Below, piece by piece: positions 1 to 44,470 of a DNA stretch of 64,000 bases. The DNA lies in contig OZ271918.1 of NCBI GenBank assembly GCA_965602015.1, positions 3,392,001-3,456,000 on the forward strand. The letters run 5' to 3'. How positions within the stretch are numbered: position 1 is the first letter of the stretch; the number at the start of each line of letters is the position of its first letter. A program made the translations under genes and the position numbers. Under the pieces are notes generated by a model that saw only the letters and a program-made list of their open reading frames with translations, made no database searches and was not told the origin of the DNA. The stretch comes from Salinispira sp. Its GTDB lineage: Bacteria > Spirochaetota > Spirochaetia > DSM-27196 > Salinispiraceae.

Positions 1-844
1 TGACCGATGAAATACCCGGATTCTGAAGTATCCATGCCAGGGCGAGCTGGGCGATTGAGATGTCATAACCCTCGGCAATCTCCGCCAGTTTGTCCACCCG
101 GGCCAAAAGCTCGGTGTCGTTAATCTGATCGCGCATAAAGACATTCAATTTCTCGTCGGCGCCCCGGCTTCCCGGGGGAATCTTTCCTTTGGAGTACTTG
201 CCGGTGAGAACACCCTGGGCGAGAGGTGAGAAATTCGCCGTACCAATGCCGAGTTTCGTGCAGGTCGGGAGTATGGTGTGTTCGATGTTCCGGTTGAGCA
301 GGCTGTAAATCGGTTGGTTGATTACCGGCAGATGCCAGCCCCGGTCCCGGCAAATCTGAACGGCCTCGTCGATTTGCTCCGCCTGCCACTCGCTGGTTCC
401 CCAATAGAGTACCTTCCCCTGCCTGATGCTGTCTTCAATCGCCTCCACGGTCTCCACCAGGGGCGTCTCCCCATCGAAGCGGTGGCAGTAAAAAATATCG
501 ACATACGTGAGGTTCAGCCGGTCGAGGCTGCCTTCAATAGAGTCGATGACGTGCTTTCGGCTGAGTCCCTTGTCGCAGGGATGGTCGGACATTGGCCAGA
601 ATGCTTTGGTGGCGACGACAAAATGCCGGCGGTTGTAGTGCGGGAGGATTTGACCCAGAAGCTTTTCCGCCTCTCCCCGGGCGTATACATCGGCGGTATC
701 AATATAGTTCACCCCCAGGGCAAAGGCTTTTTTTATTATGTCCTTTGCGTTATCAAGCTCGATCTGGTTGGCGAAGGTGAGCCACGATCCATAGGCTATT
801 TCGCTTACCTTTAATCCGGACGCTCCGACTCGTCGATATTGCAT
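1..844 (-). CDS. Aldo/keto reductase (Kv-beta-like), 3' end runs off window
   Basis: Manual minus-strand translation from ATG at 844: MQYRRVGASGLKVSEIAYGSWLTF...IDTADVY...VATK...YCHRFD...NQPIYSLL...SPLAQGVLTGKY; AKR motifs. Absent from the ORF track because it is open at the edge. Confidence 0.9.
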   Translation of the reverse strand, partial: MQYRRVGASGLKVSEIAYGSWLTFANQIELDNAKDIIKKAFALGVNYIDTADVYARGEAEKLLGQILPHYNRRHFVVATKAFWPMSDHPCDKGLSRKHVIDSIEGSLDRLNLTYVDIFYCHRFDGETPLVETVEAIEDSIRQGKVLYWGTSEWQAEQIDEAVQICRDRGWHLPVINQPIYSLLNRNIEHTILPTCTKLGIGTANFSPLAQGVLTGKYSKGKIPPGSRGADEKLNVFMRDQINDTELLARVDKLAEIAEGYDISIAQLALAWILQNPGISSV

Positions 845-1673: not shown

Positions 1674-4600
1674 CTAATAGCGCCAGATAATCAACGCCCC
1701 GGACTGGAGAAGAAACCCCTGTTCCTGCAGAACTTCGGATAACCGGTGTTCAGCAGCGGGCGCGCCGTCGATCAGCTCTATTCGCGCTGAGTTTTTGCCC
1801 CGCTCGGGGTGGATGAGCACCTCCCGGTAAAAGCCGGCCAGAATTTCGCAGAGCTGCTTTTCGGCGACCGCGGGGGCCTTACCGTCGTTCTCTTCTGGTT
1901 GTTTGGCGAATACGATATCCGCGCCCCGGCGCCCGACGGCGATCGCAAGGTGGGCCCGTCCGTTGGAGCTGATAAATATTCCGTAACTGCCGCTTCCCCG
2001 GCGCAGGGGGAAGCCCGGGAGTACCCAGGCGGGATCATAACTGTTGAGCCAGAACCAGGCGGGGGCATTGGGGCGGGCGGGCCGGCTGCCCGGGTCTCCC
2101 GACAGGAGTTCCGGAAGGCAAAACTGGAGTCCCGGAAGTTCAGGGCAAATTTTCCCGCCGATCAGTTCCCCCGAGAGTTCGAGATTCCGGAGCACCGGAA
2201 GCAGGTCCTTCCACAAAAAACTCTTCGATTCGGCGCCGAGATTCTCCCGAGAAACAATGCTCCGGCGTTGCAGAACCTGAAAAATACGGTACTGTGCGTC
2301 TGCGAGAACCTCGCCGGGGTCAGGTTCGGTATCCGAATCATCGGCGGAATAGGACAGGGGGATGTATACCCGTCCGGGAAGCCTGCTATGAGCCGGCCCC
2401 GGCGCCTGCCTTCGCCGCCGCTTGAGATGATGAAAACTCGGCGGTCTATCAGGTTTTCTCGTCGGCGCACCGTGGAACTCCTGCTTTGCTAATCCCCGCT
2501 CGGGTAATCCGGCATGTGGTAATCCAGATTCGGGTAATCCAGACTCGGGTAATCGAGACTCGGGTAATCCGGGCTGAGTCAGCGGGGCCTCGGGTATTTC
2601 CGGACCCCGGGATTCATTGCTTCGGTTCTTTGCTTCGGTATGTAACATTCCAAGGGCGAAGTAGCGCTCCAGTGCCGCCGGCGAATCGCAGCACAGCAGG
2701 CCCTTGCGGAGCGCCGAGCCGATTTTTGTCCGCAGCTCGGCGGACGGCCAGCCGAGCTTTATGCGAAGTTCTTCGATGCCGAATCTTCCGCCTTTGTATA
2801 GCAGGGAGACAAGCGCGGCCTCGCCGTCGTCCGGATGTACCGCATCTTCCTCCGGAGGTCCATACAATGAAGCATCGCTTTCGTGGGCAATAAATGCGGC
2901 GCCGCTTCCGTCCCCTGTCCAGAAAAATCCGCCGTTGATAAATGCGCTTTCGAGGGATGCGGGAGCCCCGGGGCCCAGCCTGGTGAGCAGTATGTCCCTG
3001 GCAAGGGTCTCCGGTCGGCAGCTAAACCCCGAAAGGGCATCAAGAACGGCTTCGGTTCGCTCTGCCGGGCCTGCGTCTCCCGCTGCCCGATGCCCGGCCA
3101 TTGCTCCCGCCTCCTCCGTTGGAGATGATATGGGATTTTGAACGATCGCGTTTTTAACCGCGCAGGCGAACTGTAGTTCGCCTGCTGAAATGCTTCCCCC
3201 CCGGCTGCGCTTCCATCGGCGGGTTATGCGGATGAGCCGCTCGAGAATTACAGGGGAAATCAGCCTGTCCTGCCATTCCAGAAGCTGCTCGGCGGACAGC
3301 AGCCGTTCCACGGTCTCTTCTCCCCACAGCTCAGTCATTCGGCGCCGGTCAACGAAGGCCTGCCAATCCATCCATTCCATGACCAGGGAATCAAGATTCT
3401 CCCCTCCTTCCCCATGGCCCGCCGACTGATAATCATGTATGAGGTCGCGGTGGAGCGACAGCTCTCCCCGCTTATCCGCCGCGGGGCTGCGGACGTGAAA
3501 GTCTTCAAGGGCGGCGCTTAACAGTCCCTCTGCATCGTCTGTGAGGGCGATCAGCTCCTCACGTTCCTCGTTGGTGAGAATCCGGCGGTCGTTGACGTAA
3601 AAGCGGAAATCTTCTTCATCCTCGGGACGGTATTCGTGGTATAAGCGCCGCCGCTTGAGCAGATAATCCCGCTGTACCTCCTCGGGAATTTCCGGCATAG
3701 GGTAGCTGCCCCCCAAGAGGTCTTTTAACATGTCGCGACCGGCGGTTTTTCCGCTAATGGATTCCAGGGAATCATCGGCATAGAGGTATTCGTTGTTTAA
3801 ATCCCACATGAGGTCGGAGGCGAAGGGGCTCGGTTTTGTGCTTTCGATGACAGACAGCGAAATTGCGTCGTCGCGGATGTCTCCCAGGTAGTCCTTTAGG
3901 TCATCGATGGCGAAGTCATCCTCCAGCAATTCGCGCCAGGTTTCCCTGATGATTGGAAAATCCGGATAATCGGATACTGCTTCCAGCAGTTGTTTACTCC
4001 GCATCCGCTGAACCCACAGGGGCGTGCGGGCGTTGAAACCCCGGCGAACCACCAGCAGGGAACGTCCGGAATTCGCCCGGAAACGGGCTCCGAAAATCCC
4101 GCTGCCAAGGAGCTGGGCCCACAGGAGCTGGGGAACCTCTCCGGGAAGGATTCCCTCAAGTAAATCCCGGGGTGTAAAATCCGCCGCCTGGTCCAGGGGA
4201 ATGGAACAGACCACCGCCTCATCGGTGAAATAGGACTGAAGGGCGGTGCCCCGGGAGCGGACGTGGAGTTCCCGGAGGCAGTACATCAGCGGGGCGTTGA
4301 CGCTAATTCCCCAGCCGCTGTGAATGATGCAATGGGCCATGTCGGGGGTGAGGCTTGGATCATACAACATTTCGACGAGCAGATGATCCGAGCCAGGCAA
4401 AGGCGCTCCACTGGTTTCCTTTTGCCCGAGCACCCATTCGGTCAGGGCCTTCCAGGCTTCATTCTCGATGGTTCCGGGAGGGAGCTGCCCGCGGACCGCC
4501 TCGGGGTCCGCATCGAGATCGCTGTACAGCCTGTTGAGAGCCCGGGATGTCCATGGGTCGGAGCCCAGGTTGTCGGCCTTCCAGAACGGGGCGATCATGG

Positions 4601-6248
4601 CGCTCCTCGAGCTCGCCGTCACCCGCACCTGCTGATTATCCATTTCAACGATTTGCCAGACCCGGTTTCCCAGACTAAAGCGGTCTCCCAGGCTGCGCTC
4701 AAAGACGAATTCCTCGTCGAGCTCCCCGATTTTCTCTCCGCTTCCCTGTATCCGCAGGTCAAAATATCCCCTGTCGGGAATGGTTCCGCCGCCCTGATAA
4801 ATAAGCATGCGGAGCCCCTCCCGTCCTTCGATGGCATCGCCGTCGCGGATAATCCGTTGACCAAGGTCGGCCATGCGGGTGTTCTGATACTTTCCGGCGA
4901 GCATTTCCAGGATCGATTCGAAATGGGTCCTCTCCAAATCAGCAAAGCTGTAGCTACGCCGGAACATGCTGTAGAGCTCTTCGGCGCTGCCCCGGCGCCC
5001 CGCGCACTCTGAGACGATGACCTGGGCGATGATGTCCTGACTGTTGCGGGGAATGCGGATCTCCTCCATATTCCCCAGAAGGATTTCCCGGATGAGGGCG
5101 AGGGATTTGGCAATGTCCCGGGGATGAAGGGGGGCGAAAACCGCTTTCGAAATCTGTCCGACCTGATGGTTAGCCCGTCCCACCCGCTGAATGGCCGAAG
5201 AAATGGAGAACGGCGCCTGGAGAATTACGACGTTGTCTATGCTACCCACGTCGATGCCCAATTCCAGGCTTGAGGTTGCGCACACCGCCCTCAGCCTACC
5301 GTCCTTGAGCTCCTGCTCTATCCAGTACCGGTATTCCCTGCTCAGAGACCCGTGATGGGCGAAAACCTGCTGCTGTCCGAGATACTCGTTGAGAAGATAG
5401 CTCGCTTTCTCGGCGCTTCTTCGACTGTTGCAGAATATGAGGCTGCTGCGGTGGCTTCGGATTTCCTCGGCGATGAGGGGTATTTGCCGGTCCCACCAGC
5501 CCTCACCGCGTTTTTCCCCCAGTTTGATCGCCAGGGAGTAGCCCCGGGAACGGATGTCCCGGATGATGCTGACCGGCCGGGCAGCCCCTTCGCTGTCACT
5601 TCCTCCCAAAAAGGCGGCGACCCGTTCTATGGGTTTGATTGTGGCGGATATTCCAATACGGTGTAGACCCCTCTCAGCGCCGTCGGCAGAGCGGAGACTT
5701 TCTAGGCGCTCGATGTTTACCATTAGCAGGGAACCCCGTTTGGAACCGGCGACCACATGTATCTCGTCGAGGATCACCGTAGAAATATCGGTCAGATTCT
5801 TCCGGCCGCTATCCGAAGTGAGCATGATGTTGAGGCTTTCGGGGGTGGTGATAAAAATATCCGGGGGGTGGCGGAGAATCCGGTTCCGATCGGTAGAACT
5901 GCTGTCGCCGCTTCGCACGGCCACCCTGACTTCCCGAGCGCCCTCGCCTGCCTGTTCACGGATTTCCGCCAGGGGGGTCATGAGGTTTTTTTGAATGTCG
6001 TTGTTGAGAGCCTTGAGCGGGGAGATATAAAGAATCCGTCCGGTCGAGCTGCCGTCGATAAACCCGTTGACCGCCCACAGGAAGGCAGCCAGCGTTTTTC
6101 CGCTTCCCGTCGGTGCGCAGATAAGGCAATGGGAACCGCCGGATATGGCCTTCCAGGATGCCCGCTGGATATCAGTGGCATCGGCGAAGCGGGCATCAAA
6201 CCATTGCTGTACCAGAGGATTAAATTTGGGTAGAATCTCGGAATCCAT
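1674..6248 (-). CDS. lhr: Lhr-like DEAD/DEAH-box ATP-dependent helicase
   Basis: APTGSGKT, YISPLKAL, TTPESL, DEIH, SAT, HHGSLS, ATSSLELGID, QRVGRA; 1524 aa. Confidence 0.9.
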   Translation of the reverse strand: MDSEILPKFNPLVQQWFDARFADATDIQRASWKAISGGSHCLICAPTGSGKTLAAFLWAVNGFIDGSSTGRILYISPLKALNNDIQKNLMTPLAEIREQAGEGAREVRVAVRSGDSSSTDRNRILRHPPDIFITTPESLNIMLTSDSGRKNLTDISTVILDEIHVVAGSKRGSLLMVNIERLESLRSADGAERGLHRIGISATIKPIERVAAFLGGSDSEGAARPVSIIRDIRSRGYSLAIKLGEKRGEGWWDRQIPLIAEEIRSHRSSLIFCNSRRSAEKASYLLNEYLGQQQVFAHHGSLSREYRYWIEQELKDGRLRAVCATSSLELGIDVGSIDNVVILQAPFSISSAIQRVGRANHQVGQISKAVFAPLHPRDIAKSLALIREILLGNMEEIRIPRNSQDIIAQVIVSECAGRRGSAEELYSMFRRSYSFADLERTHFESILEMLAGKYQNTRMADLGQRIIRDGDAIEGREGLRMLIYQGGGTIPDRGYFDLRIQGSGEKIGELDEEFVFERSLGDRFSLGNRVWQIVEMDNQQVRVTASSRSAMIAPFWKADNLGSDPWTSRALNRLYSDLDADPEAVRGQLPPGTIENEAWKALTEWVLGQKETSGAPLPGSDHLLVEMLYDPSLTPDMAHCIIHSGWGISVNAPLMYCLRELHVRSRGTALQSYFTDEAVVCSIPLDQAADFTPRDLLEGILPGEVPQLLWAQLLGSGIFGARFRANSGRSLLVVRRGFNARTPLWVQRMRSKQLLEAVSDYPDFPIIRETWRELLEDDFAIDDLKDYLGDIRDDAISLSVIESTKPSPFASDLMWDLNNEYLYADDSLESISGKTAGRDMLKDLLGGSYPMPEIPEEVQRDYLLKRRRLYHEYRPEDEEDFRFYVNDRRILTNEEREELIALTDDAEGLLSAALEDFHVRSPAADKRGELSLHRDLIHDYQSAGHGEGGENLDSLVMEWMDWQAFVDRRRMTELWGEETVERLLSAEQLLEWQDRLISPVILERLIRITRRWKRSRGGSISAGELQFACAVKNAIVQNPISSPTEEAGAMAGHRAAGDAGPAERTEAVLDALSGFSCRPETLARDILLTRLGPGAPASLESAFINGGFFWTGDGSGAAFIAHESDASLYGPPEEDAVHPDDGEAALVSLLYKGGRFGIEELRIKLGWPSAELRTKIGSALRKGLLCCDSPAALERYFALGMLHTEAKNRSNESRGPEIPEAPLTQPGLPESRLPESGLPESGLPHAGLPERGLAKQEFHGAPTRKPDRPPSFHHLKRRRRQAPGPAHSRLPGRVYIPLSYSADDSDTEPDPGEVLADAQYRIFQVLQRRSIVSRENLGAESKSFLWKDLLPVLRNLELSGELIGGKICPELPGLQFCLPELLSGDPGSRPARPNAPAWFWLNSYDPAWVLPGFPLRRGSGSYGIFISSNGRAHLAIAVGRRGADIVFAKQPEENDGKAPAVAEKQLCEILAGFYREVLIHPERGKNSARIELIDGAPAAEHRLSEVLQEQGFLLQSGALIIWRY
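2497..2573 (-). repeat. Imperfect 15-bp tandem repeat in lhr (GLPES-like pentapeptide, about 5 copies)
   Basis: cgggtaatcc(a/g)ga(c/t)t-like units; protein GLPESRLPESGLPESGLPHAGLPERGL. Confidence 0.8.
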
Positions 6249-6377: not shown

Positions 6378-6728
6378 ATGAACATTCAGATATTCGGCAG
6401 TAAAAAATGCAAAATCACAAAGAAGGCCGAGAGATGGTTTTCCGAACGGGGGATTTCCTATCAATTGGTGGATCTATTACAGAAAGCCATGAGCCCAAGG
6501 GAACTGGATTCGGTTCTCCGCTTTGTCAGCCCGGAAGAGCTTATCGACGAGAACTCGCCGGCGTACAAAAACCGCGGTCTGGCGTGGATGGATTTTGACA
6601 TTCGGGAAGAGCTGCTCGAACATCCGGAACTCATCCGGACTCCGGTTGTGCGGAACGGCAGCCTGGATGCCAGCGTCGGTCAGAATGAAGAAAAATGGAA
6701 GCGTTGGTACGCGGAGTCCAGGGCATGA
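6378..6728 (+). CDS. ArsC/Spx-family thioredoxin-fold protein
   Basis: MNIQIFGSKKC..TKKAERWF...LIRTPVVRNG; GGAG upstream of ATG 6378. Confidence 0.85.
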   Translation: MNIQIFGSKKCKITKKAERWFSERGISYQLVDLLQKAMSPRELDSVLRFVSPEELIDENSPAYKNRGLAWMDFDIREELLEHPELIRTPVVRNGSLDASVGQNEEKWKRWYAESRA

Positions 6729-7618
6729 ACGCAAAAACCCTGGCTGCCCTTTTGGTTACCATGACCTTTTGGGGCTCTTCCTTCGTGGCGAGCAAGTTCA
6801 TTCTGGAAATCTGGCCGCCCTGGGCGTTTATGTTCCTGCGCTTTTTTTTCGCATCCCTGGTCTTTCTCGTTTTGCTCATACGGAGAAAGAAGCTTTATAT
6901 TCCCCGGGATGTAATCTCCCGCCTTCTTCTCATTTCGCTTTTTGAGCCGGCGCTGTATTTTGTATTCGAAACCCTCGGCCTTCAGCGGACGACGGCGGCG
7001 AGTTCGTCCATTATCATCGCCGCCATTCCCGCAGTGGTCGCCCTCTTTTCGGCACTATTTCTGAAAGAACATCTCAGCGTCAAAGGCTGGGTCGGCACCC
7101 TGCTGTCGATTGCCGGCATCGCGATAATTACCCTGTTGGATTCAAACGCCGCCAGATCATCAAGCTCGCTGCTGGGAAACTTCTTCGTCGTCCTCGCGGT
7201 ATTTTCGGCGACGGGATACATCGTGTTGGCGAGAAGCATAGCCGGACGGATTTCCGCATTGCAGCTGACGGCCTACCAGTCATTTTTCGCGGCCCTGTTT
7301 TTCTCCCCGGGGATATTTTTGCAGGGATCCGCGCTGTTCGCCGCCTCCTATGATCCGTTCTTGATACCGGCATTTTTATTCATCGTCCTGGGAGCCACTG
7401 TTGCGGCATTCCTGGCATATAACTATGCCCTGAGTCAGATTCCCGCGCCAAAGGCGGCGGTATTTATCAACGGAATACCGGTGGTGACGGTAATCGTCGC
7501 ATGGGCCGTTCTCGGCGAAACGCTGAACATCTACCAAATCTTTGGAGGTGGGCTTGCGGTCGGCGGACTGATGCTGGCTAACCGCCGGGAAACCGCAAAA
7601 ATTAATCTCGAAGCGTAA
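6725..7618 (+). CDS. DMT/EamA-family transporter
   Basis: FWGSSF start motif, about 10 hydrophobic segments, two EamA repeats. Confidence 0.88.
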   Translation: MNAKTLAALLVTMTFWGSSFVASKFILEIWPPWAFMFLRFFFASLVFLVLLIRRKKLYIPRDVISRLLLISLFEPALYFVFETLGLQRTTAASSSIIIAAIPAVVALFSALFLKEHLSVKGWVGTLLSIAGIAIITLLDSNAARSSSSLLGNFFVVLAVFSATGYIVLARSIAGRISALQLTAYQSFFAALFFSPGIFLQGSALFAASYDPFLIPAFLFIVLGATVAAFLAYNYALSQIPAPKAAVFINGIPVVTVIVAWAVLGETLNIYQIFGGGLAVGGLMLANRRETAKINLEA

Positions 7619-7744
7619 ACGATGTGCGCCGGTATTTTAGCGGCTATTTAAAATAAAAATTATGTAGTGATGGTATGAAAGCGGTGCCTCCCCCGAGATC
7701 CTGCCAGTCAGGGTCTATATTAAATACCGGAGGAGGACAACCAA

Positions 7745-8797
7745 ATGAGTAGTATTATTATATCCCTCGACAGCCATAAACGGTATACCGTGGCTGCAAT
7801 TGAGGACGAAAAAGGAAGGAAATCCTCACAGCGCATAGAACATTCTCACGGGTGTATTCGTGATTTCCTCCAACAATTTGAGCCGGGACAGGAAGTCGCA
7901 CTTGAAACGATCGGAAGTTGGTACTGGATCGTGGATGAGATTGAGGAGGCCGGCATGAACCCCTTGCTGGTTCATGCCGGTAAGTCAAAATTGATGATGG
8001 CCATGTTTAACAAAACTGACAAACTCGATGCTGAAGGTCTCAATAAACTTCAAAAAACAGGCACACTGCCTACTGTGTGGATTCCACCAGGAGAATTACG
8101 TGATAAACGAGAACTCTATCGAACCCGGATGCAGTTCGTTCAGGAGTTGATACGTGAAAAGAACCAAATTCATGCCGGGTTCGAGAAATATGGGTTTCGA
8201 TTCAATGATGTGAGCGATCTGTTCGGAAAAGCAGGTACAGAAGCCTTGAAGAAGGTAATGCCAAAACTCCCCGAGCATACCCGCACCATGATGAAACTCA
8301 AGCTCGATAATCTCGCGTTTATTAAGCAATCTATCACCGACTGCGAACAACGAATGCATGAAGCGTTTGATGAAAATGCTGAAATGAAGTTGGTGAAATC
8401 CATTCCCGGGATCGGATTTATTCTCAGCGCAGTCATTGTGCATGAAATTGGAGACATACATCGCTTTAAGACCGCTGAACATTTTGCATCATACTGTGGT
8501 ACAACGCCGCGCGTTCACTCGAGCGGAGGTAAAACTCATTATGGTCGAACATCGAAAGCATGTAATCGATACTTGAAGTGGGCACTTACTGAAGCAGCTA
8601 ATGTAACCTGTCTTAATCAAAGAAATTGGGCGAACCGACATACGGTAAAACTCTACAAGAGAGTTCGTACTAAACGAAATCATAAGGTTGCTATAATCTC
8701 TGTGGCACGGCACTTAGCAGAAGCAATATTTTGGATATTGCAGAAAGAACAGCATTACAAAGATCCTGCATTAGCGGGTTTGTCCAGACAGGGGTAA
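7745..8797 (+). CDS. IS110-family transposase/recombinase (DEDD + Tnp20)
   Basis: SLDSHK, ALET, KTDKLDA, SIPGIG, YCGTTP..HSSGG; GGAGGA RBS. Confidence 0.95.
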
Positions 8798-8918
8798 GCG
8801 CGTTTTTGGGGCTACAGCGCGAATACGAGGCTGTGCAAAGTGATTGCGACACCCCTGGAAGGACATTTTCATGCCACGTGGATGGCGGAGATATGACTCG
8901 GACAAAACCGATTTGCAG
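8766..8918 (+). ncRNA. Predicted bridge/seek RNA of the IS1111-type element (copy 1)
   Basis: Nested stems and four guide-like segments matching the target and donor junctions (see findings); boundaries approximate. Confidence 0.7.
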
Positions 8919-8971
8919 AATTTTTGTAATAGAACATTGAAAACTCTTGCGGGGAGGCACCGCTTTCAGAT

Positions 8972-9178
8972 ATGGCATATAACTATGCCCTGAGTCAGAT
9001 TCCCGCGCCAAAGGCGGCGGTATTTATCAACGGAATACCGGTGGTGACGGTAATCGTCGCATGGGCCGTTCTCGGCGAAACGCTGAACATCTACCAAATC
9101 TTTGGAGGTGGGCTTGCGGTCGGCGGACTGATGCTGGCTAACCGCCGGGAAACCGCAAAAATTAATCTCGAAGCGTAA
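8972..9178 (+). pseudogene. Duplicated 3' fragment (68 codons) of the DMT gene
   Basis: Identical to the DMT C-terminus; the ATG is created by the IS-end junction. Confidence 0.85.
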
Positions 9179-9304
9179 ACGATGTGCGCCGGTATTTTAG
9201 CGGCTATTTAAAATAAAAATTATGTAGTGATGGTATGAAAGCGGTGCCTCCCCCGAGATCCTGCCAGTCAGGGTCTATATTAAATACCGGAGGAGGACAA
9301 CCAA

Positions 9305-10357
9305 ATGAGTAGTATTATTATATCCCTCGACAGCCATAAACGGTATACCGTGGCTGCAATTGAGGACGAAAAAGGAAGGAAATCCTCACAGCGCATAGAA
9401 CATTCTCACGGGTGTATTCGTGATTTCCTCCAACAATTTGAGCCGGGACAGGAAGTCGCACTTGAAACGATCGGAAGTTGGTACTGGATCGTGGATGAGA
9501 TTGAGGAGGCCGGCATGAACCCCTTGCTGGTTCATGCCGGTAAGTCAAAATTGATGATGGCCATGTTTAACAAAACTGACAAACTCGATGCTGAAGGTCT
9601 CAATAAACTTCAAAAAACAGGCACACTGCCTACTGTGTGGATTCCACCAGGAGAATTACGTGATAAACGAGAACTCTATCGAACCCGGATGCAGTTCGTT
9701 CAGGAGTTGATACGTGAAAAGAACCAAATTCATGCCGGGTTCGAGAAATATGGGTTTCGATTCAATGATGTGAGCGATCTGTTCGGAAAAGCAGGTACAG
9801 AAGCCTTGAAGAAGGTAATGCCAAAACTCCCCGAGCATACCCGCACCATGATGAAACTCAAGCTCGATAATCTCGCGTTTATTAAGCAATCTATCACCGA
9901 CTGCGAACAACGAATGCATGAAGCGTTTGATGAAAATGCTGAAATGAAGTTGGTGAAATCCATTCCCGGGATCGGATTTATTCTCAGCGCAGTCATTGTG
10001 CATGAAATTGGAGACATACATCGCTTTAAGACCGCTGAACATTTTGCATCATACTGTGGTACAACGCCGCGCGTTCACTCGAGCGGAGGTAAAACTCATT
10101 ATGGTCGAACATCGAAAGCATGTAATCGATACTTGAAGTGGGCACTTACTGAAGCAGCTAATGTAACCTGTCTTAATCAAAGAAATTGGGCGAACCGACA
10201 TACGGTAAAACTCTACAAGAGAGTTCGTACTAAACGAAATCATAAGGTTGCTATAATCTCTGTGGCACGGCACTTAGCAGAAGCAATATTTTGGATATTG
10301 CAGAAAGAACAGCATTACAAAGATCCTGCATTAGCGGGTTTGTCCAGACAGGGGTAA
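9305..10357 (+). CDS. IS110-family transposase/recombinase, copy 2
   Basis: Identical protein to 7745-8797. Confidence 0.95.
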
Positions 10358-10478
10358 GCGCGTTTTTGGGGCTACAGCGCGAATACGAGGCTGTGCAAAG
10401 TGATTGCGACACCCCTGGAAGGACATTTTCATGCCACGTGGATGGCGGAGATATGACTCGGACAAAACCGATTTGCAG
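10326..10478 (+). ncRNA. Predicted bridge/seek RNA (copy 2)
   Basis: Identical to 8766-8918. Confidence 0.7.
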
Positions 10479-10532
10479 AATTTTTGTAATAGAACATTGA
10501 AAACTCTTGCGGGGAGGCACCGCTTTCAGATA

Positions 10533-10680
10533 TGCCCCGAAAACAGCTGATTTAAACAGCGTAAACCGTTTGCATAATGTGATTTGTCTCTCATCCAATG
10601 AAGCCATTGATAAAACTCCTGTTTTTTATTTTCACACAGCGAGTTACACCGCACAAATCAGCTGTTTTCGGGGCAGTACC
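10533..10680. mobile_element. MITE, left TIR interrupted by IS110 (stub TGTAG at 9223-9227)
   Basis: Near-identical to 44323-44470; TIR ...TGCCCCGAAAACAGCTGATTT / AAATCAGCTGTTTTCGGGGCAGTACC. Confidence 0.85.
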
Positions 10681-10712
10681 TAAAAATAACGAGATGGGGG
10701 TATACTGTTCAT

Positions 10713-11777
10713 ATGAAAACTCTGAATCCTGCGCTTAAGGCCGTTATATATGTCGTCGCCGGAATTGCCGCGCTGTGGCTCATCATTCTGCTGCTCAATA
10801 TCCTGCCCTGGGCTCCGGGCTATCCCGGAGTTAATCCTATGCGCATCGAAGCCGGCCAGCGGCCGCACATTGTTCCCCATGGCGGGGCAAAGGAACTGTA
10901 CCCCGAAAATACCCTGCTGAGTTACCGGAGAATGCAGGAAAACGGGTGGAACACCTTCGAGGTCGACCTGTGCCTCACCGCCGACGGTCAGCTTATAACC
11001 CATCACGATTTGTCCATCGAGAGAACGTCGGGCATCCCGGGGGTACTGGTCCGCGATATGAGTTATGCGGAGCTGAGCGCTATCAACTTCGGCGTGAATT
11101 TCACCGATCCCGGCGGTCGTATGCCATATGCCGATGAGCAAACCCTCTCTCCCGAGCTTCGTCGGCTCCTGGGCCCAGCCCGGCTTGCCGATCTGTTTGA
11201 GAACTACCCTGAGAACTACTACATACTCGAGCTGAAGGATACGGTGGACGCCAGCGGCGCCGCGAATGCCGAGGCCGCTGTGCTGGAGCTTATTCGGCTA
11301 ATTGAAACCTACGGAATGCAGGACAGGGTTGTGGTCAGCAGTTTTGATGACGATGTCACTTCCGATTTTCGCGAGCGCACGGGAGGCAGCATTCCCACCG
11401 GAGCGGCGACCATGGACACCTTGATTTTCTCCGTCCTCTCGGCTCTTAATCTCGATTTTTTTATCGCCCCGGCGTACTCGGCGGTAATGCTTCCCGTGCG
11501 GGACATTATTTATCCGAACGAGCGGGCAATCATCGAACGTCTTCCGAGGGGATTGAGGAACAAGCTGTCGAGTTACGATGAGGCGAGCGACACCCTGTAC
11601 ACCAATCTTGCCAACCGGCGCATGGTAAGGGATGCCCACCGAAAGAACCTCGCGGTCTATTACTGGACGGTAAATGACCGGGAGACCATGGAATTTCTTA
11701 TCAACATGGGCGTCGATGGAATAATCACCGACAGACCTGATATTCTATCCGATCTTCTCGACGAAATGGGCCTCTGA
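10713..11777 (+). CDS. Glycerophosphodiester phosphodiesterase, N-terminal membrane anchor
   Basis: HGG...PENTL, EVD..LTADG.L...HD, ELK, WTVND, GVDGIITDRPD. Confidence 0.9.
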   Translation: MKTLNPALKAVIYVVAGIAALWLIILLLNILPWAPGYPGVNPMRIEAGQRPHIVPHGGAKELYPENTLLSYRRMQENGWNTFEVDLCLTADGQLITHHDLSIERTSGIPGVLVRDMSYAELSAINFGVNFTDPGGRMPYADEQTLSPELRRLLGPARLADLFENYPENYYILELKDTVDASGAANAEAAVLELIRLIETYGMQDRVVVSSFDDDVTSDFRERTGGSIPTGAATMDTLIFSVLSALNLDFFIAPAYSAVMLPVRDIIYPNERAIIERLPRGLRNKLSSYDEASDTLYTNLANRRMVRDAHRKNLAVYYWTVNDRETMEFLINMGVDGIITDRPDILSDLLDEMGL

Positions 11778-44317: not shown

Positions 44318-44470
44318 GGTAGTGCCCCCAAAACAGCTGATTTAAACAGCGTAAATCGTTTGCATAATGTGATTTGTCTTTCATCCAATGAAGCCATTGA
44401 TAAAACTCCTGTTTTTGATTTTCACACAGCGAGTTACACCGCACAAATCAGCTGTTTTCGGGGCAGTACC
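44318..44470. mobile_element. MITE, intact 153-bp copy
   Basis: 26-bp TIRs with 2 mismatches: GGTAGTGCCCCCAAAACAGCTGATTT / AAATCAGCTGTTTTCGGGGCAGTACC; second copy at 10533. Confidence 0.85.

Follow-up and report, generated by a model that had tools for sequence, protein, structure and literature searches.

Recombination by elements of the IS110 insertion sequence (IS) family at sites that carry only part of the expected recognition sequence has been described in two recent preprints. In the terms of Hu et al. 2026 (bioRxiv 10.64898/2026.08.14.744561), insertion gives LT|RD and LD|RT junctions, LD being the right end of the IS, and the part of that preprint used here reports that the boundaries of repeat units keep almost only LD matches, the unmatched side being no more similar than chance. 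The portion of Xie et al. 2026 (bioRxiv 10.64898/2026.08.31.748434) on which we draw reports recombination at sites matching the core and one arm or less, with one class of insertion sites showing no match at all, and the excerpt used of Pares-Guillen et al. 2025 (PMC12288879) describes circles joined at alternative core dinucleotides outside ISPpu9. Here we analysed a stretch of 64,000 nucleotides (nt) from Salinispira sp. (assembly GCA_965602015.1, contig OZ271918.1, positions 3,392,001-3,456,000 of the forward strand), hereafter the window, in whose coordinates positions are given unless stated otherwise; the genome is one contig of 3,869,486 bp. The window holds a 1560-bp tandem duplication in which each unit comprises 255 bp of host DNA and an IS110-family element of the IS1111 type, and whose junction was probably made by the recombinase of the element itself.

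When compared with these accounts, the tandem fits the half-match, LD-only expansion of IS110 elements. As in the cases described in the cited parts of Hu et al. and Xie et al., a complete IS module is repeated in tandem on the same strand, the right end (LD) and the core are retained at the unit boundary, a convincing match is lacking on the other side and adjacent DNA is added. In contrast to those precedents as given there, the element here is of the IS1111 type (subterminal inverted repeats and a putative 3′ RNA), what was added is not plasmid cargo but 255 bp of a chromosomal gene to the left of the element, and the case is known from an assembly sequence. It thus fits as a natural extension, to an IS1111-type element and chromosomal flanking DNA, of a phenomenon that was itself already described in the 2026 preprints.

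ISPpu9 of Pseudomonas putida, as presented in the excerpt of PMC12288879, is likewise an IS110-family element lying in repetitive extragenic palindromic (REP) sequences, and its circles at alternative cores outside the IS carry flanking DNA. However, its alternative joints followed engineered mutations of the ends and involved tens of bases, whereas here the ends are wild type and 255 bp are involved; moreover, the core is AG there and TG here. The IS1111 seekRNA elements ISEc11, ISKpn4 and ISPa11, in the sections used of Siddiquee et al. 2024 (PMC11187229), share with the present element inverted repeats in subterminal position, a long non-coding region that follows the transposase gene (tnp) and the order of the putative RNA segments, and the 350-aa transposase found here carries the G--P----SG motif as theirs do. 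Unlike them, the present element uses as target a REP-like repeat of its own genome; no named IS was matched, the closest relatives found being about 50% identical. Finally, IS621 belongs to the same protein family (E 4.2e-11 to PDB entry 8wt6) and follows a two-loop guide RNA logic that the present element is predicted to share. According to the cited part of Xie et al., however, the IS621 RNA is encoded upstream of the gene and CT serves as the core, whereas the present element has TG as its core, its putative RNA downstream of the gene and the long guide arm for the right side of the target.

The tandem duplication and its junction

The initial annotation of the locus had claimed a 1560-bp tandem duplication whose junction is exactly the IS right end joined to a chromosomal TG, and both parts of this description hold. 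Indeed, direct sequence comparison shows positions 7413-8972 to be the same as 8973-10532 over 1560/1560 bases with 0 mismatches, the identity extending 0 bases leftward and 2 bases (TG) rightward, and TG is present at all three unit boundaries (7413-14, 8973-74 and 10533-34). Each 1560-bp unit is composed of 255 bp of host DNA and the 1305-bp IS, and the features of the duplication are the following.

6695..7618, + strand: EamA/DMT-family transporter gene, an intact open reading frame (ORF) of 307 aa (PF00892 EamA, E 4.7e-47), containing the left boundary of the duplication
7413..7414, + strand: non-cognate TG, the proposed crossover core, in the context CATTCC|TG|GCATATAAC
7413..7667, + strand: host segment copy 1, 255 bp, comprising the last 206 bp of EamA and 49 bp of intergenic DNA; only two copies in the genome, both in the tandem
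7668..8972, + strand: IS copy 1, 1305 bp with the TG core counted at the left; its right flank is TGGCATATAAC in place of the REP-like repeat
8972..8975, + strand: novel junction, with the last IS base A, the core TG and host G (…CAGATA|TG|GCATATAAC)
8972..9178, + strand: junction-made ORF of 68 aa, whose ATG is A8972 plus TG, in frame with the last 67 aa of EamA
8973..9227, + strand: host segment copy 2, 255 bp
9228..10532, + strand: IS copy 2, identical to IS copy 1, with the canonical right flank
10533..10675, + strand: canonical target, TG core and REP-like repeat TGCCCCGAAAACAGCTGAT, the left arm of a 143-bp inverted pair resembling a miniature inverted-repeat transposable element (MITE; 32-nt arms, 84%)

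At the tandem junction the sequence reads ...GGCACCGCTTTCAGATA|TG|GCATATAAC, that is the IS right end, the core TG and host DNA, and the same GCATATAAC stands after the TG at 7413-14 inside the EamA ORF. The 10 IS copies of the genome define the IS end, and the duplication has its right boundary at exactly that base. In contrast, the left arm of the 7413 site, read from the sequence, agrees at 0/5 positions with the left flank of the target and at 0/6 with the IS right end. The exact right end and core are kept at the boundary, as in LD-only expansion, and the right arm of the partner agrees with the IS left end at 0/9 positions, though an 8/10 match does appear in a shifted register. Moreover, Hu et al., in the part consulted, count as tandem a same-strand adjacent repeat of at least 95% identity with a unit of at least 50 bp in at least two copies; here two 1560-bp units are adjacent on the same strand and 100% identical.

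Large exact tandem duplications were then searched in the 3.87-Mb genome and this one, 1562 nt at a spacing of 1560, is the only one, the next exact tandem being 176 nt at a spacing of 177. The duplication is without evident benefit for the host because the EamA gene stays intact. As a separate observation, the predicted 68-aa ORF that starts at the junction lies directly downstream of IS copy 1.

The element, its target and its predicted guide RNA

The features of the element, given for IS copy 1, are listed below; those of the RNA are predictions.

7676..7693, + strand: left subterminal inverted repeat TGAAAGCGGTGCCTCCCC, 18 nt and perfect, with its partner at 8951-8968
7745..8797, + strand: transposase/recombinase gene, 350 aa, with PF01548 and PF02371, NF033542 and a match to IS621 (8wt6)
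8798..8915, + strand: 3′ non-coding region, a putative seek/bridge RNA with two guide loops and three hairpins, deduced from the sequence
8802-8812, + strand: putative target loop segment GUUUUUGGGGC, pairing with top-strand G+CCCCGAAAAC over 11 contiguous positions
8814-8818/8830-8834, + strand: predicted target-side hairpin, a shared helix
8837-8843, + strand: putative left-flank segment AAAG|UG|A, equal to left flank and core
8864-8872, + strand: putative donor loop of the left-end side, CAUUUUCAU, a 9-nt loop
8872-8876/8883-8887, + strand: predicted donor-side hairpin, 100% paired in 6/6 sequences
8889-8896, + strand: putative right-end segment AGAUA|UG|A, equal to right end and core
8898-8901/8908-8911, + strand: predicted 3′ hairpin, a shared helix
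8951..8968, + strand: right subterminal inverted repeat GGGGAGGCACCGCTTTCA, after which come GATA and the core

Judged by its sequence, the IS protein is an IS110-family RNA-guided transposase. It scores 224 bits against NF033542, 'IS110 family RNA-guided transposase' (NCBIfam, cutoff 140), 39.3 bits against PF01548 (cutoff 29) and 93.7 bits against PF02371 (cutoff 21.3), and it matches IS621 in PDB (8wt6) with an E of 4.2e-11. Furthermore, a G--P----SG motif with the predicted catalytic serine was found in the C-terminal part of the translation, and G--P----S/T-G is given in the part used of Siddiquee et al. 2024 (PMC11187229) as the C-terminal motif of the IS110 family that bears this serine. 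The non-coding DNA measures 175 nt downstream of tnp (8798-8972) and 77 nt upstream (7668-7744). Since the subterminal inverted repeats, the downstream non-coding region and the motif fit the description in PMC11187229, the element was assigned to the IS1111 type. The order of the RNA segments is that of the same subgroup: the segment complementary to the top strand (8802-8812) lies 5′ of the one complementary to the bottom strand (8837-8843; top strand AAG|TG), and this is the order that the cited part of Siddiquee et al. gives for IS1111 elements, with the segment complementary to the target top strand 5′ of the bottom-strand one.

Ten copies of the IS are present in the genome, 9 full and 1 interrupted, at 98.7-100% identity. 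AG stands at the end of the left flank in 10/10 of them, and the right flank begins with TGCCCC in 9/10 and with TGCCCC[G/C]AAAAC in 8/10. The sole copy of the 10 without the TGCCCC right flank is copy 1 of the tandem, which reads TGGCATATAAC, so that its right end is not flanked by the MITE, as had been noted in the initial annotation. No difference separates the two tandem copies, against 2 differing sites in the nearest other copy and 11-17 in the remainder. In the interrupted copy (C1:1706983-1709278), IS positions 61-379 are replaced by a 1310-bp element of which the genome has 7 identical copies and which carries a 319-aa integrase-like frame, putatively IS3-like by eye.

The sequence GCCCCNAAAAC has 144 hits genome-wide, 10 of which are the guide region of the IS itself on the opposite strand. 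A T precedes 124 of the hits, the motif being preceded by AGT in 65 cases and by ACT in 28, and 8/124 T-preceded hits are occupied, in that they follow an IS end, leaving 116 unoccupied TGCCCCNAAAAC sites. The flanks and this census together define the empty target as the REP-like repeat A[G/C]-TG-CCCC[G/C]AAAACAGCTGAT, and given this reconstruction the IS boundaries with their TG core are correctly placed. The copies thus share one flanking target sequence. As for the repeat itself, its core occurs about 134 times in the genome and serves as target of the IS. The 143-bp MITE-like unit at 10533-10675 consists of two REP-like repeats in inverted orientation (TGCCCCGAAAACAGCTGAT); a further copy of the unit, 97% identical, lies at about 44323-44466 (genome 3436323-3436466) and a third, 89.5% identical, elsewhere.

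Relatives of the element were searched at several levels. A transposase-based search of the genome contigs matched 52 patterns and found 0 relatives, a 21-mer scan of the genome contigs gave 0 hits, and among 401 genomes sampled from the phylum a match was obtained in G000 only. An exact scan of metagenome contigs with the 19-mer of the right end returned 3 loci, which were rejected as chance matches in unrelated coding sequence (114/397 identical to the IS). At the level of the order, 6 other genomes among 99 were found to hold relatives about 50% identical; both ends and the RNA were found only in L010, and L013 gave the left end only. In the same-genus genomes G001 and G002, EamA is present at about 63-70% identity with no shared downstream genes, and the ancestral empty site is not reconstructable from them.

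The 3′ RNA was examined by covariation in a set made of the window and 5 relatives (L010, L011, L012, L014 and L015), which come from the same taxonomic order and have proteins about 50% identical. Three hairpins are common to the six aligned 3′ regions with 90.5% of cells paired, a figure that comes from only six related sequences, whereas controls slid along the alignment were 31-44% paired. Moreover, 7 hairpin pairs change on both sides, and 0/500 shuffles scored as high. The hairpins are predicted to be separated by four single-stranded segments (8802-8812, 8837-8843, 8864-8872 and 8889-8896). This covariation is moderate evidence for the predicted hairpins, as it comes from six related sequences. 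The single-sequence fold of the 3′ region has a z-score of -0.38, and an Rfam scan of 7300-10800 at E <= 1 found no family.

Among the relatives, changes in the target guide go together with changes in the right flank, the guide/flank pairs being AGGUGUCA/TGACACCT in L014, CUUCGUCA/TGACAAAG in L010 and CUGUGUCA/TGACACAA in L015. On the donor side, A|TG|ATGAT is the left end observed in L010 and L013, and the loops of 3/5 relatives (AUCAUCAU) are perfectly complementary to it. If the element in the window follows its relatives, its left-end guide would be the 9-nt loop 8864-8872, the 3′ CAU facing A|TG. In this homology register the left end of the element in the window is paired at 7/9 positions with 2 wobbles (read from the sequence), and in the register proposed in the initial annotation it has 11 contiguous paired positions. 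It was also observed that the left end (7668-7680) holds a near-copy of the right-end junction, with GGTATGA at +3..+9 against GATATGA across the core (8968-8975), and that L010 carries an exact GATATGA. With such an internal near-copy, two pairing registers of the donor guide are possible.

Origin of the junction

We consider that the junction was probably made by a recent one-sided recombination carried out by the element's own RNA-guided DEDD recombinase. The junction is taken as a recombinase product because the right boundary is the IS end, the crossover falls in the 2-nt core, no other large tandem exists in the genome and the IS copies are identical; the event is considered recent because the two tandem copies show no difference, against 2 differing sites in the nearest other copy. 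A duplication made without the recombinase, by replication slippage or microhomology joining that ended at the IS tip by chance, could account for the 2-bp TG microhomology at the junction. However, such a short microhomology is uninformative, the endpoint lies exactly on the IS end and the core dinucleotide, and other large tandems are absent from the genome, so that slippage landing there is very unlikely.

In the proposed sequence of steps, the right-end junction would be the site best specified by the RNA, as AGAUA|UG fits the right end and core and the 11-nt guide fits the REP flank. The TG core of this right end would recombine with an unrelated TG that lies within EamA, 255 bp leftward of the element, and the joining would give right end-TG-GCATATAAC either on a 1560-bp circle (255 bp of host DNA and the IS) or as a duplication formed directly between sister chromosomes. 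The circle could then be reintegrated, either through homologous recombination or at the right-end/REP junction, which still resembles a target, to give [255][IS][255][IS]. Both the circle and the sister-chromosome routes would leave this same arrangement, in which they are indistinguishable by sequence.

The predicted guide pairing differs between the two sides: 7 and 11 nt on the right, against about 5 (AAG|UG) and a weak 9-nt loop on the left. With the stronger pairing on the right side, the right end would therefore be anchored and the left partner loosely specified, and it is this asymmetry in guide strength that may make the left partner promiscuous. It suggests a testable rule, namely that the end with the weaker guide pairing is the end that wanders, and this bears on the off-target behaviour of bridge/seek recombinases as genome editors. 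If so read, the locus is a clean and base-exact natural example of an RNA-guided IS that joins its well-specified right end to a non-cognate core and thereby duplicates itself and a piece of a gene.

The same right end-TG-GCATATAAC junction would also be obtained in two steps, if a normal circle inserted off-target at the 7413 TG to give [IS][255][IS], followed by unequal homologous exchange with an uninserted sister, or by exchange and precise excision of the first copy. Off-target insertion at unmatched core sites is on record, with 27/168 sites in the 'none' class in the portion used of Xie et al. (bioRxiv 10.64898/2026.08.31.748434). However, this route needs two or three events where one suffices, the junction of the left end with 7413 that it would have created is absent from the assembly, and the 7413 site agrees with the target guides at 7/11 positions with 2 wobbles in the canonical register, about 6 being expected (read from the sequence). 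We regard this two-step origin as quite doubtful.

Two groups of observations weigh against a one-sided recombination with a left partner chosen without guidance, the first from public contigs and the second from the position of the 7413 site. The public data are contigs (Logan) from four runs of one sample. Contigs of the runs X1 (11,424 nt, depth 37.6), X2 (11,423 nt) and X3 (538 nt) cross 7413 unbroken and with 0 differences, and among the 32 contig pieces listed of 201 none bridges the 8972/8973 junction. In a k-mer graph, a junction present at full depth should be expected to split the contigs at this point. The duplication may consequently be a minority form or have been mis-threaded in the assembly. 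As to depth, in X1 the IS contig stands at 319.5 against 29.5-37.6 for single-copy DNA, which is too coarse to tell 9.7 from 8.7 copies; stretches that the contigs leave uncovered carry no weight either way.

These contigs are what would be seen if most or all chromosomes held one unit and the second unit of the assembly had been contributed by a minority variant, or by reads derived from a circle of 1560 bp or from a concatemer. Since 1.5-kb tandem repeats are unstable, mixed populations are expected, which is in line with such an assembly effect. On the other hand, a base-exact joint at the IS end and core cannot arise by random mis-joining, and the exactness of the junction implies that molecules carrying right end-TG-GCATATAAC existed; furthermore, the genome has no other such tandem, and rare variants are lost from contigs, of which 32 listed pieces out of 201 were covered. 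An assembly effect is thus a real possibility, albeit one that we hold to be rather improbable.

With regard to the position of the site, the initial annotation had proposed that 7413 was selected through a match to the donor guide, and its arithmetic was confirmed: TGGCATATAA (7413-7422) agrees at 8/10 positions with the sequence fully complementary to RNA 8867-8876 and does so 3 nt closer to the core than the true left end, whose pairing with the same RNA begins 3 nt farther away from the core T (offsets 3..13, as opposed to 0 at 7413). In exactly this register, 944/229,230 TG sites (0.41%) reach 8/10, and among the 114 TG sites of the 2-kb stretch left of the IS, 7413 ranks first. Moreover, 15 TG sites closer to the left end than 7413 were left unused, which the proposed recombination does not explain.

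The rarity of the match and the rank of 7413 favour the idea that the left-end (RD) guide chose the site, with RNA 8871-8876 (AUGCCA) pairing TGGCAT at 7413-7418, core included, so that 7413 would be a cryptic left end. So do the 11 contiguous pairs that the same RNA segment (8867-8876 region) makes with the true left end and the fact that, in the part of Hu et al. cited, a nearby segment of 6-7 nt of the same loop once served as alternative donor guide. Nevertheless, half of the proposed guide, RNA 8872-8876 (UGCCA), pairs with 8883-8887 in a stem kept in 6/6 sequences, with two compensatory pairs, one of them the window's own A:U. The register is off by 3 nt from the left-end pairing of the annotation itself and by 5 nt from the homology-based one, in which the loops of 3/5 relatives fit A|TG|ATGAT perfectly and the 7413 site has no position in common with the left end (the 0/9 given above). 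Furthermore, the match was noticed after the site had been seen, and it loses its rarity when the search is widened: if neither the register nor the segment is fixed, 8/10 is reached by 50% of 3000 random TG sites, and with G·U allowed, 17.6% of 1500 random TG sites have a helix of at least 10.

Hence selection of the site by a donor-guide match is not supported, and a guide-chosen site appears unlikely, although the pairing at 7413 in the register of the annotation may contribute to the choice. Its more specific form, a slid register of the left-end guide in an IS1111-type element in which the distal stem opens and AUGCCA pairs TGGCAT including the core, is somewhat less likely again; if true, the cryptic left end and the captured flanking host DNA would be RNA-directed and predictable, not haphazard. 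Of the off-target capture originally proposed, what is supported is thus a recombinase-made joint of the right end to a TG that duplicates 255 bp of flanking host DNA, in view of the exact IS end and the sole genomic tandem; the guide-directed cryptic left end is not. In the one-sided recombination that we favour, the left partner would accordingly be a TG not chosen by the guide.

A further reading, in which the bottom strand of the site (TG-CCAGGAAUGC) is set against the target guide to form a 10-nt helix with 3 wobbles, was rejected; it predicts an inverted IS at 7416-17, of which none is seen, and 17.6% of random sites equal it.

Other features of the window and genome

Direct repeats that are exact over 686 bp (at a spacing of 15,298) and over 898 bp (at a spacing of 6781) were observed in the window at about 48721 and about 53276 (genome 3440721 and 3445276). 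Outside the window, a repeat array with a period of about 834 bp is present at C1:3746581-3748454 and a 177-bp exact tandem at genome position 2046836. Finally, an ORF of 1524 aa with helicase motifs (1674-6248, - strand) adjoins the EamA locus.

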